This document shows positions 26,118 through 33,050 of a stretch of 64,000 nt of DNA, piece after piece. A program made the translations under genes and the position numbers. The stretch is from positions 6,545 to 70,544 of the forward strand of contig CAMASG010000001.1 in the NCBI GenBank assembly GCA_945860945.1, in the 5' to 3' direction. This DNA comes from Akkermansia muciniphila. Lineage in GTDB: Bacteria; Verrucomicrobiota; Verrucomicrobiia; Limisphaerales; SIAT01. The notes under the pieces were generated by a model. The model made no database searches. It had not been told where the DNA came from and saw nothing but the letters and a program-made list of their open reading frames with translations. Position 1 is the stretch's first letter. Each line of letters begins with the position of its first letter.

Positions 26118-26146
26118 TTGACACTCGGGAAGCAACAAATCATTGT
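26118..26146 (+). promoter_or_regulatory. candidate sigma70-type promoter for the S-box leader
   Basis: Perfect TTGACA at 26118-26123. Only weak -10 candidates (CATTGT/TTGTAT) lie 17-19 nt downstream. Confidence 0.25.
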
Positions 26147-26173
26147 ATCCGCATCCGTTGATGCAACGGATGA

Positions 26174-26291
26174 CTCATCACGAGTGGCTGAGGGACTGGC
26201 CCGACGACGCCACGGCAACCAGTTGGAGCGGGTGCTCCGATGTTTAGGTGCCAATTCCAGCCCCGCCGGCAACGGCGTGGGAAAAGATGAG
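26174..26291 (+). promoter_or_regulatory. SAM-I (S-box) riboswitch aptamer
   Basis: P1 CTCATC/GATGAG. Conserved cores GAGGGACTGGCCC, CGGCAACC and GGTGCCAATTCC are present. P3 hairpin GGAGC-GGGT-GCTCC and P4 CCGCCG-GCAA-CGGCG(T)GG with a GNRA loop. Confidence 0.85.
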
Positions 26292-26310
26292 AAGAGCGCG
26301 CGAGCTTTCG

Positions 26311-26342
26311 GCCCCTTCTCACCTTGTGGGAAGGGGCTTTTT
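26311..26342 (+). terminator. riboswitch expression-platform intrinsic terminator
   Basis: 12-bp stem GCCCCTTCTCAC-CTT-GTGGGAAGGGGC followed by TTTTT, 23 nt before the thrC-like ATG. Confidence 0.8.
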
Positions 26343-26365
26343 GCGCCCCAGAAAGACGCAGAATT

Positions 26366-27628
26366 ATGGAAAAGCACGAAGGGTTCATGAAGGCGCTGAA
26401 GTGCCGCGAGTGCGGGCGGGAATACCCGCTGGCCGCGACGCACGTGTGCGAGTTCGACTTCGGCCCGCTCGAGGTGGCCTACGATTACGACCGCATCAAG
26501 AAATCGCTCACCCGCGCCGCCATCGAAAAGCGGCCGCAGACGATGTGGCGTTACCGCGAGCTGCTGCCGATCGCCGGCGAGCCGACGGTCGGTTTTCAAG
26601 TTGGGTTCACGCCGTTGGTGAAGGCCGACCGCCTCGCCAAGCGCCTCGGCATCCGCGAGCTTTGGATCAAGAACGACACGGTTAATTACCCGACGCTCTC
26701 GTTCAAGGATCGCGTGGTGAGTGTGGCGTTGAGTCGCGCGCGCGAGCTTGGTTTCAAGGTCGTCGCCTGCGCTTCCACCGGCAACCTCGCCAACTCCGTC
26801 GCGGCGAACGCTGCCGCTGCCGGTCTCAAGTCATTCGTTTTCATCCCGTCCGATCTCGAGCAGGGGAAGGTGATTAACTCGCTCGTGTACGGCGCGAATG
26901 TCATTGGCATCAAAGGCCATTACGACGAGGTGAACCGCCTCTGCGCGGAAATCGCCGGCAAGTTCGGCTGGGCGTTCGTGAACGTGAATATGCGCCCGTA
27001 TTACGCCGAAGGCTCGAAGTCGATGGGCTTCGAGATTGTCGAGCAACTCGGTTGGCGCGCTCCGCAGCATACCGTCGTGCCGATGGCTTCCGGTTCGTTG
27101 CTCACCAAGATTCATAAGAGCTATCAGGAGTTCATGAAGCTCGGGATCATTCCCGAGTCGCGGTATCACGTGCACGGCGCGCAGGCCACGGGCTGTAGCC
27201 CGATATCCGTTGCGCAAAAGGCGGGGCTTGATTTCTTCAAGCCCGTCAAGCCGAATACCATCGCCAAGAGCCTCGCGATCGGCACGCCGGCCGATGGTTT
27301 CTACGCGCTCAAAGTGATGAAGGAGACCGGCGCCGTTGCCGAGGATGTGAGCGACGATGAGCTCCGCGAAGGCATCAAACTCCTCGCGGAATACGAAGGC
27401 ATTTTCGCCGAGACCGCCGGAGGTGTGACCGTCGGTGTCGCCAAGAAACTCATTGCCTCAGGCAGGATTCCCGCTGATGATTCTGTGGTGCTTTGCATCA
27501 CCGGCAACGGCCTCAAGACGCTCGACGCGGTCGTGGGCCACACGGGGCGCGCGCGTGAAATCAAGCCGAGCCTGCGCGAGTTCGAGGCGCTCATCAACGC
27601 CGAGGGCGAGTTGTCTGCGGCCATCTGA
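26366..27628 (+). CDS. threonine-synthase-family PLP enzyme (ThrC-like; proposed O-phosphohomoserine-dependent homocysteine synthase)
   Basis: PTLSFKDR PLP-lysine motif, ASTGN and a GNGLK-type C-terminal block, with an N-terminal Cys cluster (CRECG...CE). Family assignment is firm; the physiological reaction is inferred from context. Confidence 0.85.
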   Translation: MEKHEGFMKALKCRECGREYPLAATHVCEFDFGPLEVAYDYDRIKKSLTRAAIEKRPQTMWRYRELLPIAGEPTVGFQVGFTPLVKADRLAKRLGIRELWIKNDTVNYPTLSFKDRVVSVALSRARELGFKVVACASTGNLANSVAANAAAAGLKSFVFIPSDLEQGKVINSLVYGANVIGIKGHYDEVNRLCAEIAGKFGWAFVNVNMRPYYAEGSKSMGFEIVEQLGWRAPQHTVVPMASGSLLTKIHKSYQEFMKLGIIPESRYHVHGAQATGCSPISVAQKAGLDFFKPVKPNTIAKSLAIGTPADGFYALKVMKETGAVAEDVSDDELREGIKLLAEYEGIFAETAGGVTVGVAKKLIASGRIPADDSVVLCITGNGLKTLDAVVGHTGRAREIKPSLREFEALINAEGELSAAI

Positions 27629-27636
27629 CCAAGTTT

Positions 27637-27912
27637 ATGCCAGTCAACATTCGTATTCCCACGCCGCTGCGCAAACTGACCAACAACGAGGAAGTTGTGG
27701 AGGTTCAGGCCGGCACCATCGCCAGCGCGCTCGTTGAGTTGCAGAGCCGTTTTCCCGGTGTTCAAGAGCGCTTGCTCGACGAGAAAGGCGAAGTGCGCCG
27801 CTTCGTGAACGTGTACGTGAACGAGGAGGACATCCGTTTTCTCCAACAGCAGGAGACGCTCCTCAAGGACGGCGACGAAGTGAGCATCATTCCCGCCATC
27901 GCTGGTGGCTAA
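27637..27912 (+). CDS. CysO/MoaD/ThiS-type sulfur-carrier protein (beta-grasp, C-terminal GG)
   Basis: 91 aa ending ...DGDEVSIIPAIAGG-stop. The RFVNVYVNEEDIRF core resembles CysO-type carriers (from memory). It starts 8 nt after the thrC-like stop. Confidence 0.85.
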   Translation: MPVNIRIPTPLRKLTNNEEVVEVQAGTIASALVELQSRFPGVQERLLDEKGEVRRFVNVYVNEEDIRFLQQQETLLKDGDEVSIIPAIAGG

Positions 27913-27918
27913 TTGATT

Positions 27919-28221
27919 ATGGCTCACGCTCCCAAGAAAACAAAACCCGCCGCCAAAGCCGCCAAGAATGGCGCGCGTCCGCAACAGACACGCCTCTGGT
28001 TGATGTATCCGCCCAAGCTCATCACGCGGCCGATCATCTGGGAGCTGGGACACAAGTTCGCGGTCTCCACCAACGTGCGCCAAGCGAGCGTGACCGACGA
28101 AATCGGCATCGTCTGCCTCGAGCTCGACGGCGAGCGCGAGCAGATCAAGGCCGCCATCGCGTGGCTCGAGAAACTCGGCGTCAACGTCGAGCCGGTCGAG
28201 ATCAACGTGATCGAGAGCTGA
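27919..28221 (+). CDS. stand-alone NIL-domain protein with a Lys/Ala-rich N-terminal tail
   Basis: PIIWELGHKFAVSTNVRQASV...GIVCLELDGEREQIKAAIAWLEKLGVNVEPV fits the NIL (MetN C-terminal-like) pattern. ATG lies 6 nt after the carrier stop; a TTG at 27913 is the alternative. Confidence 0.7.
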   Translation: MAHAPKKTKPAAKAAKNGARPQQTRLWLMYPPKLITRPIIWELGHKFAVSTNVRQASVTDEIGIVCLELDGEREQIKAAIAWLEKLGVNVEPVEINVIES

Positions 28222-28251: not shown

Positions 28252-29052
28252 ATGGACTTGGGTTTGAAAGAGAAGGTGGTGCTCATCAGCGGCGGCGCTT
28301 CCGGCATTGGTGAAGCCACGGTTCGATTGCTCGCCGCAGAAGGCGCGCGCGTCACTATCGCTGATCGCAATTCCTCCGCCGGCCGCGCTCTCGCCAGCGA
28401 ACTCACAAACGCCGGTGCGCACGTTTTATTCTGTGAAGGCGATTTGACTCGCGAAGATGCCTGCCGTGCTGCCGTGACCGACACGCTGCAGAAATGGGGA
28501 CGCCTGGATATTCTCGTTAACAACGCTGGCGTGAACGACGGCGTTGGGTTGGAGCGTCCACCGGCCGATTTTCTGGCGTCGATTCACTTGAACCTGTTCC
28601 ACGTTTTTGCGCTGACCCATTTTGCGCGAGAGGCGCTTTGCCAATCGCAGGGTGCTGTGGTGAACGTCAGTTCCAAAGTGAGCGTGACGGGGCAGGGCAA
28701 GACCTCTGGCTACGCCGCGGCCAAAGGTGGAGTGAACGCGCTTACACGCGAGTGGGCCGTGGCATTCGCGCCGCACAACGTGCGCGTGAACTGCGTGGTG
28801 CCAGCCGAGTGCGACACGCCGCAGTATGAGAATTGGTTCCAGTCGTTGCCCGATCCTGCAGCGGCGCGTGCGGCCATCGAATCGCTCGTACCATTGGGCC
28901 GCCGTTTGACGCGTGCGGACGAACTTGCCGCCACCATCGCCTTCCTCGCTTCGCCTCGCGCAGCCCATATCACGGGGCAACTGCTCTTCGTGGACGGCGG
29001 CTACACGCACCTCGATCGCGCCGTCAGCGTCAGCCACCAAAAGTGGGGTTGA
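28252..29052 (+). CDS. SDR-family oxidoreductase
   Basis: ISGGASGIGEAT cofactor motif, NNAG and the YAAAKGG catalytic Tyr-x3-Lys. Confidence 0.85.
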   Translation: MDLGLKEKVVLISGGASGIGEATVRLLAAEGARVTIADRNSSAGRALASELTNAGAHVLFCEGDLTREDACRAAVTDTLQKWGRLDILVNNAGVNDGVGLERPPADFLASIHLNLFHVFALTHFAREALCQSQGAVVNVSSKVSVTGQGKTSGYAAAKGGVNALTREWAVAFAPHNVRVNCVVPAECDTPQYENWFQSLPDPAAARAAIESLVPLGRRLTRADELAATIAFLASPRAAHITGQLLFVDGGYTHLDRAVSVSHQKWG

Positions 29053-29104: not shown

Positions 29105-29180
29105 GGGCGGTTGGCGCAGTGGTTAGCGCAGATGCCTTACACGCATTTGGTCGGGGGTTCGAGTCCCTCACCGCCCACCA
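29105..29180 (+). tRNA. tRNA-Val (anticodon UAC)
   Basis: Hand-folded cloverleaf: acceptor GGGCGGT/ACCGCCC, anticodon loop CTTACAC, T-arm GGGGG-TTCGAGT-CCCTC, encoded CCA. Confidence 0.9.
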
Positions 29181-32914: not shown

Positions 32915-33047
32915 GATTGATGTGCGATTGATGTGCGATTGATGTGCGATTGATGTGCGATTGATGTGCGATTGATGTGCGATTGATGTGCGATTGATGT
33001 GCGATTGATGTCCGATTGATGTCCGATTGATGTCCGATTGATGTGCG

Positions 33048-33050
<3 letters not shown>
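32915..33050. repeat. perfect 11-bp tandem repeat, 12 full units plus a degenerate 13th
   Basis: GATTGATGTGC x8, GATTGATGTCC x3, GATTGATGTGC x1, then GATG. Unit starts are at 32915 + 11n. Confidence 0.95.

Follow-up and report, generated by a model that had tools for sequence, protein, structure and literature searches.

We analysed a 64-kb stretch of DNA (64,000 nt of contig CAMASG010000001.1, hereafter the window), in which three closely spaced genes on the forward strand follow an S-adenosylmethionine (SAM) riboswitch of the SAM-I (S-box) class. The first gene, metM-like (26366..27628), encodes a ThrC-family pyridoxal 5'-phosphate (PLP) enzyme of 420 amino acids (aa). The second, metO-like (27637..27912), begins 8 nt past the enzyme gene and encodes a 91-aa sulfur carrier of the ThiS/MoaD/CysO type, which ends in PAIAGG directly before the stop codon. 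The third (27919..28221) begins 6 nt past the carrier gene and encodes a stand-alone NIL-domain protein of 100 aa, with an alternative TTG start at 27913. A first-pass annotation, made from the letters and their reading frames, had already described this arrangement, and profile searches agree with each of its gene assignments: the enzyme is matched by PF00291 (226 bits) and by TIGR00260 thrC (276 bits), the carrier by PF02597 (64.8 bits) and moaD_arch (51.9 bits, above cutoff), and the NIL protein by PF09383 (44.3 bits, with a gathering score of 24). The enzyme carries the Schiff-base lysine motif PTLSFKDR pointed out at that time, and its K114 is invariant in two homologue alignments.

The same annotation had proposed that this ThrC paralogue is probably not a threonine synthase and uses the thiocarboxylated carrier to make homocysteine, a proposal that fits all of the comparative evidence presented below. 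Indeed, with a probability of about 80% by our estimate, the operon would serve SAM-repressed, protein-thiocarboxylate-dependent homocysteine synthesis and would constitute a MetM/MetO system in a Pedosphaera-like soil Verrucomicrobium. In Streptomyces albulus, MetM, a threonine-synthase homologue, and the sulfur carrier MetO convert O-phospho-L-homoserine to homocysteine (Hasebe, Adachi, Maruyama & Hamano 2024, Appl Environ Microbiol 90:e01247-24, as summarised in PMC12172450); metM has an upstream SAM riboswitch there, and homologues occur in cyanobacteria (PMC12172450). The GapMind 2026 preprint gives MetO, Mec, MoeZ and MetM as the steps and describes MetM as 'often misannotated' as threonine synthase. 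These two sources confirm the actinomycete pair that the first-pass annotation had tentatively mentioned. The closest named homologues come from Pedosphaera sp. and other Verrucomicrobiota and place the host, as a Pedosphaera-like bacterium, in the Verrucomicrobiota and the PVC superphylum, in line with the PVC-like host assumed before. We observed the same locus in at least six metagenome samples of the European Nucleotide Archive, on 23 contigs.

The riboswitch leader

The S-box leader proposed upstream of the enzyme gene was recovered by RF00162 (SAM-I) at 26172-26293 on the forward strand, over model positions 1-108 of 108, at 73.7 bits and E = 2.2e-15 (the gathering score being 44.4), and it is the sole riboswitch that Rfam finds in the window. 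With a covariance model built in this analysis from 12 leaders, it scores 108.5 bits. The minimum-free-energy fold of 26172-26350 consists of the four-way aptamer and then a terminator hairpin (26310..26342, forward strand), also obtained in the fold of 26280-26350. Its 13-bp stem, counted as 12 bp in the first-pass annotation, pairs 26310-26322 with 26326-26338, including two G-U pairs, around a 3-nt loop; the following U5 run (26338-42) stops 23 nt 5' of the ATG at 26366, the distance given before. A simple consensus terminator scan missed this terminator, which folding shows.

A sub-fold of 26283-26326 (-16.2 kcal/mol) gives an antiterminator (26284..26325, forward strand), in which the P1 3' strand at 26284-26294 (AAGAUGAGAAG) is paired with the 5' arm of the terminator at 26315-26325. 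This pairing is incompatible with both P1 and the terminator, and the competition of terminator and antiterminator for the P1 3' strand is the classic geometry of a transcriptional S-box OFF switch. When SAM is scarce, the P1 3' strand would pair with the terminator 5' arm and transcription would read through; when SAM is bound, P1 would form, followed by the 13-bp/U5 terminator, and transcription would stop 23 nt before metM. Both SAM binding and SAM-dependent termination are predicted here from the family to which the leader belongs.

The locus was compared with 80 loci from GTDB species genomes, gathered with an 8-sequence alignment of the closest full-length MetM proteins. They span Verrucomicrobiota, Kiritimatiellae, Planctomycetota, Nitrospirota, Nitrospinota, Thermodesulfobacteriota, Cyanobacteria, Acidobacteriota, Methylomirabilota, Omnitrophota and one actinomycetotal metagenome-assembled genome (MAG). 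By our own covariance model, the window and 27 of these 80 loci (the latter from at least five phyla) have a SAM-I riboswitch immediately 5' of metM in the same orientation. It is present in nearly all Verrucomicrobiota loci having enough upstream sequence, and also in Kiritimatiellae, five Planctomycetota, three Thermodesulfobacteriota-like MAGs, an unclassified MAG (L035) and one Acidobacteriota MAG. Seven matches from different lineages were re-confirmed with Rfam's own model (73-96 bits). In addition, a Micromonosporaceae representative (P0245) has a SAM-I riboswitch that ends 8 nt before the start codon, with 80 bits by our model and 77 bits by that of Rfam.

Across 29 homologous leaders, 98.9% of the cells are paired and 12 of the 23 pairs have changed on both sides, in an alignment that was fitted to the covariance model and therefore somewhat favours the structure; slid controls were paired at 41-56% and none of 500 shuffles reached such values. 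Since the covariation is strong and no shuffle matches it, a chance origin of the aptamer fold is excluded.

Nine representative loci lacking SAM-I, from Cyanobacteria, Nitrospirota and other phyla, showed no riboswitch of any class. In several Thermodesulfobacteriota and Planctomycetia loci, a gene for an Rrf2-family (IscR/CymR-like) regulator instead lies upstream, and in L029, L030, L031 and L034 such a gene heads clusters devoid of a SAM riboswitch. This position suggests that protein-based sensing of sulfur or Fe-S may replace RNA-based SAM sensing there.

Upstream of the aptamer, TTGACA at 26118-26123 (forward strand) is the probable -35 box of the operon promoter, as indicated by conservation between loci: the window and the related loci L007-L016 and L020-L026 all have TTGAC(A) equally far 5' of the aptamer. 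A consensus promoter scan gave no promoter, apparently owing to a spacer of about 19 nt to the best -10-like hexamer. A short 5' hairpin, CATCCGTTG-ATG-CAACGGATG (26152..26172, forward strand), directly precedes P1. Its stem is kept in Pedosphaera-like loci with compensatory variants, namely CCGTTG/CAACGG, CCCGGG/CCGGG (L015, L016) and CACCGTG/CACGGT (L007), and it may stabilise the 5' terminus or form an additional regulatory helix.

The MetM-like enzyme and the sulfur carrier

An exhaustive HMMER search returned 1841 representatives at E <= 1e-30. In the 80 loci, from about ten phyla, the enzymes are 58-86% identical to that of the window, and a gene for a CysO-like carrier adjoins the enzyme gene in 78 of them. 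Three loci (L027, L032 and L055) also contain a canonical thrC directly after metM-metO-NIL; the canonical ThrC of L027 has 363 aa and a TIGR00260 score of 328 bits, and lacks a zinc-ribbon. These canonical proteins share 33-40% identity with MetM-clade proteins and 35-37% with the window enzyme. Because canonical thrC genes share a locus with metM at only 33-40% identity, the MetM clade is a distinct paralogue with a function of its own, co-existing with housekeeping ThrC. The enzyme thus falls in a separate clade that co-occurs with carriers, one of the two placements that the first-pass annotation had considered. In the comparison with canonical ThrC, an N-terminal zinc-ribbon of about 55 residues is confined to the MetM clade; most phyla have the pattern CxxC...CxxC, but Verrucomicrobiota and Gemmataceae have CxxC...CxxD. 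ThrC structures in the PDB are all canonical and leave residues 1-55 of the window enzyme uncovered. In the window, the zinc-ribbon corresponds to MetM residues 13-31 (26366-26460) and its fourth ligand is Asp.

The best PDB relative of the carrier is CysO of Mycobacterium tuberculosis (3DWG chain C, from the CysM-CysO complex), which aligns over the full length with 73 bits. Profile searches of open reading frames (ORFs) of at least 40 aa and a Pfam survey of the large ORFs found no E1-like or JAMM gene in the 64-kb window, as had been stated. In other phyla such partners can be part of the cluster: 21 loci contain E1 genes of the ThiF/MoeB type, one or two each, 15 contain a gene for a JAMM protease akin to archaeal desampylase, and about 17 contain CysK/CysM genes, in clusters from Nitrospirota, Thermodesulfobacteriota, Planctomycetota and the Actinomycetota MAG. 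By homology, the E1, JAMM and CysK/CysM companions together make up a full toolkit of the CysO/Mec/MoeZ type. The verrucomicrobial and cyanobacterial loci all lack E1 in the cluster. The occurrence of JAMM follows the carrier C-terminus: JAMM is present in 12 of the 22 loci where the C-terminus is blocked by 1-14 extra residues or a fused domain, and in 3 of the 56 loci where it is GG (blocked versus free, Fisher p = 4e-6). As the carrier of the window already ends in GG, the absence of JAMM/Mec there is expected.

Several variants of the carrier were also seen. In L058 (9229-10296, the Actinomycetota MAG), MetO is fused after its Gly-Gly to an E1 of the ThiF/MoeB type in a 355-aa ORF, with JAMM and CysK genes upstream of the fusion and NIL downstream. 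In some Verrucomicrobiota, namely L009 (8030-8599), L015 (4437-5044) and L016 (9275-9892), metM and NIL are separated by a tandem pair of MetO paralogues, of which one has the C-terminus ...IAGG and its partner ...FAGG or ...IAGG. The cyanobacterial loci L049, L051, L054, L057 and L063 have, besides metO downstream, a second and more divergent ThiS/MoaD-like ORF ending ...VSGG, which sits 0.2-1 kb upstream of metM.

From the published S. albulus biochemistry and homology, the chemistry can be proposed as follows. An E1-like enzyme, which we infer to be encoded elsewhere in the genome, would adenylate the free C-terminal Gly-Gly of MetO and convert it to the thiocarboxylate. MetM would bind O-phospho-L-homoserine as a PLP aldimine, eliminate phosphate and add the sulfur of MetO-COS- at the gamma carbon; judging by CysM/CysO, homocysteine would then be freed through an S-to-N acyl shift followed by hydrolysis.

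This scheme resembles three known systems. With the S. albulus pair the window shares the ThrC-homologous PLP enzyme, the ThiS/CysO-type carrier, the SAM riboswitch upstream of metM and the annotation as threonine synthase; it differs in its Verrucomicrobiota host, in a carrier with a free GG, for which a Mec/JAMM step is unneeded, and in having no MoeZ nearby, and it adds a conserved, co-transcribed NIL that is not among the listed pathway steps. In the actinomycete locus L087, unlike the window, metO and NIL are not adjacent to metM. The core mechanism and riboswitch control are already published (2024), so that the riboswitch, which the first-pass annotation had counted as new context, is not new: S. 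albulus metM has one and SAM-I is found in several phyla. The NIL gene, counted likewise, does appear to be a new element with respect to the published pathway, in the secondary accounts of which it is not listed. New here are the conserved and sometimes fused NIL partner, the link between JAMM and blocked carriers, and the breadth of the clade across phyla. The CysO/CysM/Mec+/MoeZ system of M. tuberculosis is alike in its closely homologous carrier and in the attack of a thiocarboxylate on a PLP-bound aminoacrylate-type intermediate derived from an O-phospho amino acid; the window differs in its ThrC-family enzyme, its predicted O-phosphohomoserine substrate and homocysteine product, and its SAM riboswitch. 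Finally, Krishnamoorthy & Begley reportedly described in 2011 a protein-thiocarboxylate methionine pathway in Wolinella succinogenes (HcyS/HcyD/HcyF/MetY), in which a carrier is likewise said to deliver the sulfur for homocysteine and a JAMM protein to unblock the carrier, as would be the case for blocked or fused MetO elsewhere. MetY is said to act there on O-acetylhomoserine, as opposed to a ThrC homologue on O-phosphohomoserine here. We know of no NIL partner for that pathway.

Several points weigh against homocysteine synthesis by the operon. The NCBIfam thrC equivalog TIGR00260 scores the window enzyme at 276.5 bits, well beyond its cutoff of 167.1. In the window, no cognate E1 of the MoeZ/ThiF type was found for the carrier, and Pfam scans of the large ORFs gave neither a homoserine kinase nor any further met or thr gene. 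Orthology to S. albulus MetM would follow from a chain of similarities together with synteny and the riboswitch: the riboswitch-controlled Micromonosporaceae protein P0245 is 53% identical and a Microcystis novacekii homologue (L085) 58% identical to the window enzyme, and the Microcystis aeruginosa PCC7806 protein is 51.6% identical to S. albulus MetM (PMC12172450). For the M. aeruginosa clade member, both a threonine synthase and a deaminase activity are reported in vitro, and the study concludes that it does not fully act as MetM in vivo (PMC12172450).

The profile score, these in vitro activities and the public label 'threonine synthase' could be taken together to mean that the 420-aa protein is a true threonine synthase, perhaps moonlighting as a threonine deaminase, with the carrier and NIL as unrelated neighbours or parts of another pathway. 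We consider this very improbable. A SAM OFF switch on thrC would make little regulatory sense, the carrier adjoins the enzyme almost throughout, canonical thrC genes are separate in L027, L032 and L055, and the S. albulus experiment showed the function of MetM, whose misannotation the GapMind 2026 preprint notes. In addition, the window enzyme is under the cutoff of the longer PRK08197 model (294 versus 303). Taken with the context, these data indicate that the TIGR00260 equivalog over-reaches, and the window enzyme was not filed as ThrC. Still less probable is another sulfur product, whether cysteine made from O-phosphoserine in the manner of CysM/CysO or, as with BexX/CysO, a thiolated secondary metabolite; SAM control would then mirror the overall sulfur status of the cell. 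The carrier is nearest to CysO of the CysM-CysO and BexX-CysO complexes and may serve more than one enzyme in the roughly 17 loci with CysK/CysM in the cluster, but the enzyme is of the ThrC family (substrate O-phosphohomoserine) and not of the CysM family, CysM/K are separate ORFs, S-box riboswitches control Met/SAM genes, and the window has no secondary-metabolite context.

Under carrier-dependent homocysteine synthesis, thousands of 'threonine synthase' entries from Verrucomicrobiota, Planctomycetota, Nitrospirota, Thermodesulfobacteriota, Cyanobacteria and others, which fall in the carrier-linked clade, are probably homocysteine synthases. Their reannotation changes how auxotrophies are predicted, and sulfur fluxes modelled, in soil and freshwater bacteria of high abundance. 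The pathway, for which the experimental evidence comes from one actinomycete, would thereby extend to about ten phyla, with modular accessories: control by SAM-I or by an Rrf2 regulator, together with genes for E1, JAMM and CysK/M.

The NIL-domain protein

The NIL protein consists of a variable Lys/Ala-rich tail followed by a ferredoxin-like core of about 78 aa. Its AlphaFold2 model has a beta-alpha-beta-beta-alpha-beta core with a predicted local distance difference test (pLDDT) score of 85-90, and its top PDB matches in Foldseek belong to the C2 domain of MetN, the ATPase of the methionine importer (3TUI, 3DHW, 3DHX), with a root-mean-square deviation (rmsd) of 1.6-2.4 A over about 75 residues. 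In a profile alignment, the invariant Asn and Ala of its TN-V-R-Q-A motif align with MetN N295 and A299, and N-x-R-x-A is at least 90% conserved in 38 NIL proteins of several phyla. In MetN, N295A abolishes methionine binding and A299 lies in a register-shifting beta-strand (PMC6233128); L-methionine is bound by this Asn and Ala across the C2 dimer. The likeness to MetN C2 (3DHW, 3DHX, 3TUZ) therefore comprises the fold, 28% identity, the equivalents of Asn295 and Ala299 and a place in methionine metabolism; the window-type NIL differs in being stand-alone or carrier-fused rather than joined to an ABC ATPase, and in having the Arg of N-x-R and a fixed acidic C-terminus. A role as persulfide carrier was rejected, since the lone Cys, though invariant in Verrucomicrobiota, gives way to Ala, Ser, Thr, Ile or Asp elsewhere.

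NIL was found in 37 of the 80 loci: in 15 of 18 from Verrucomicrobiota, in most from Nitrospirota and Thermodesulfobacteriota, in some Planctomycetia, in L058 (Actinomycetota) and in L082 (Methylomirabilota). No cyanobacterial or Gemmataceae locus of this set has it, nor does the actinomycete locus L087. The reverse test used 80 metagenomic loci gathered with the single NIL protein of the window. We observed metO directly upstream of NIL in 69 of the 71 loci having enough upstream sequence, and metM before metO in 32 of the 33 having more. From the NIL side, therefore, this NIL subfamily is dedicated to the operon.

MetO and NIL form a single ORF in at least eight GTDB genomes (L028, L029, L030, L031, L034, L040, L043 and L046); in this ORF, ...SIIPAIAGG is followed by a basic linker of 4-10 residues and then NIL. 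A database search with one fusion gave at least 120 clusters at 90% identity (167-189 aa); all those listed carry both Pfam domains, and the listed matches are named in the source databases only 'MoaD family protein' or 'molybdopterin synthase sulfur carrier subunit'. A JAMM gene is near all seven complete fusions. In the window, the metO and NIL genes share a frame (27637 and 27919, 282 nt apart); programmed read-through into a MetO-NIL protein was rejected, because this frame is not kept in L007 (1795 and 2070), and we treat it as a coincidence.

Since the MetN C2 fold and the methionine-binding Asn and Ala are conserved, a ligand sensor is the most likely role for NIL; we tentatively suggest that it may sense a small ligand, methionine or homocysteine, while associating with MetO and/or MetM. 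A more specific form of this idea is rather doubtful, namely that NIL gates the sulfur carrier: the ligand would control JAMM maturation of the MetO-GG-NIL precursor found in many anaerobe lineages, and the unfused verrucomicrobial NIL would control access of MetO to E1 or MetM. As a sensor, NIL would add a fast post-translational feedback on top of the slower riboswitch control. Two observations speak against these proposals for NIL. As cyanobacterial loci and the actinomycete locus L087 do without it, NIL is not essential to the chemistry. Moreover, rigid docking of MetO and NIL is unsupported: the AlphaFold2 model of a natural fusion has two confident domains (mean pLDDT 89.5) joined by a weak linker, with a predicted TM-score (pTM) of 0.54, and predicts no fixed interface.

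Some of the same data bear on a different role, which we think rather unlikely, in which NIL is not a sensor but a stoichiometric structural partner or adaptor of MetO, presenting it to E1 or MetM or shielding the thiocarboxylate and, in fusions, acting as a removable C-terminal cap that makes activation dependent on JAMM. The MetO-GG-NIL fusions would force 1:1 synthesis, and their constant JAMM neighbour agrees with a cap; in full clusters NIL is placed between metO and the E1 gene, and in L058 it comes after the MetO-E1 fusion. The two-domain layout is also shared by PDB 1V8C, the 'MoaD related protein' of Thermus thermophilus HB8 from structural genomics, in which a MoaD/ThiS-like beta-grasp with an internal GG precedes a ferredoxin-like domain. 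A model of the MetO-NIL fusion aligns with it over 172 columns and both domains (E = 2.6e-9); 1V8C differs by its 22% identity, a C-terminal domain missed by the NIL profile, and another domain orientation (rmsd 14 A). However, the residues conserved in NIL across phyla (N-x-R-x-A) are those of the methionine and dimer site of MetN, no fixed MetO-NIL interface was predicted, and the confinement of the sole Cys to Verrucomicrobiota makes a direct sulfur relay unlikely. The sensor and adaptor roles are mutually compatible.

A literature search on NIL together with sulfur carriers gave nothing relevant. 'NIL' occurs nowhere in the text of the GapMind 2026 preprint, and Iyer, Burroughs & Aravind 2006 mention no ThrC, NIL or methionine contexts. 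NIL-ferredoxin proteins (MA1822 / DvMF_0262) are required for the DUF39 (COG1900) route to homocysteine (PMC5764234), which likewise ties NIL to a non-canonical, sulfur-inserting synthesis; the window differs in having neither a ferredoxin domain nor a DUF39 or COG2122 partner, and in a route via O-phosphohomoserine and not aspartate semialdehyde. The JGI annotation gives the NIL-ferredoxin name to many small NIL proteins like that of the window. NIL thus turns up both in methionine transport and in two homocysteine pathways that are unconventional and unrelated to each other, and the present data give a testable handle on it. The MetO-NIL fusions with JAMM resemble, in bacterial biosynthesis, the processing of ubiquitin precursors, and the proposed need for cleavage of MetO-GG-NIL before activation recalls that of ubiquitin-ribosomal-protein fusions. 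If NIL were a sensor gating the carrier, it would add a protein-level feedback layer to the thiocarboxylate pathway; this would be the first function for stand-alone NIL proteins and might extend to the NIL-ferredoxin of the DUF39 pathway and to 1V8C.

Neighbouring genes and repeats

Downstream of the operon, a gene for a short-chain dehydrogenase/reductase (SDR; 28252-29052, best NCBIfam match L-fucose dehydrogenase, 338 bits) starts 30 nt past the NIL stop, with no terminator between the two, and it may be co-transcribed with the operon. It was rejected as a member of the system, since an SDR gene comes after the operon in only 3 of 81 loci, and is probably unrelated to it. The SDR gene is followed by a tRNA-Val(TAC) at 29105-29180.

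Further downstream, between an ABC-3 permease gene and a DUF993 gene, a tandem repeat at 32915-33049 is made of 12.3 copies of an 11-nt unit (GATTGATGTGC) with 98% matches. When two metagenome copies of the locus (L001 and L002) are compared, the coordinates of the downstream genes shift by 99 nt, equal to nine units, from the repeat-bearing intergenic stretch on, a shift that may reflect copy-number variation of the 11-nt repeat.

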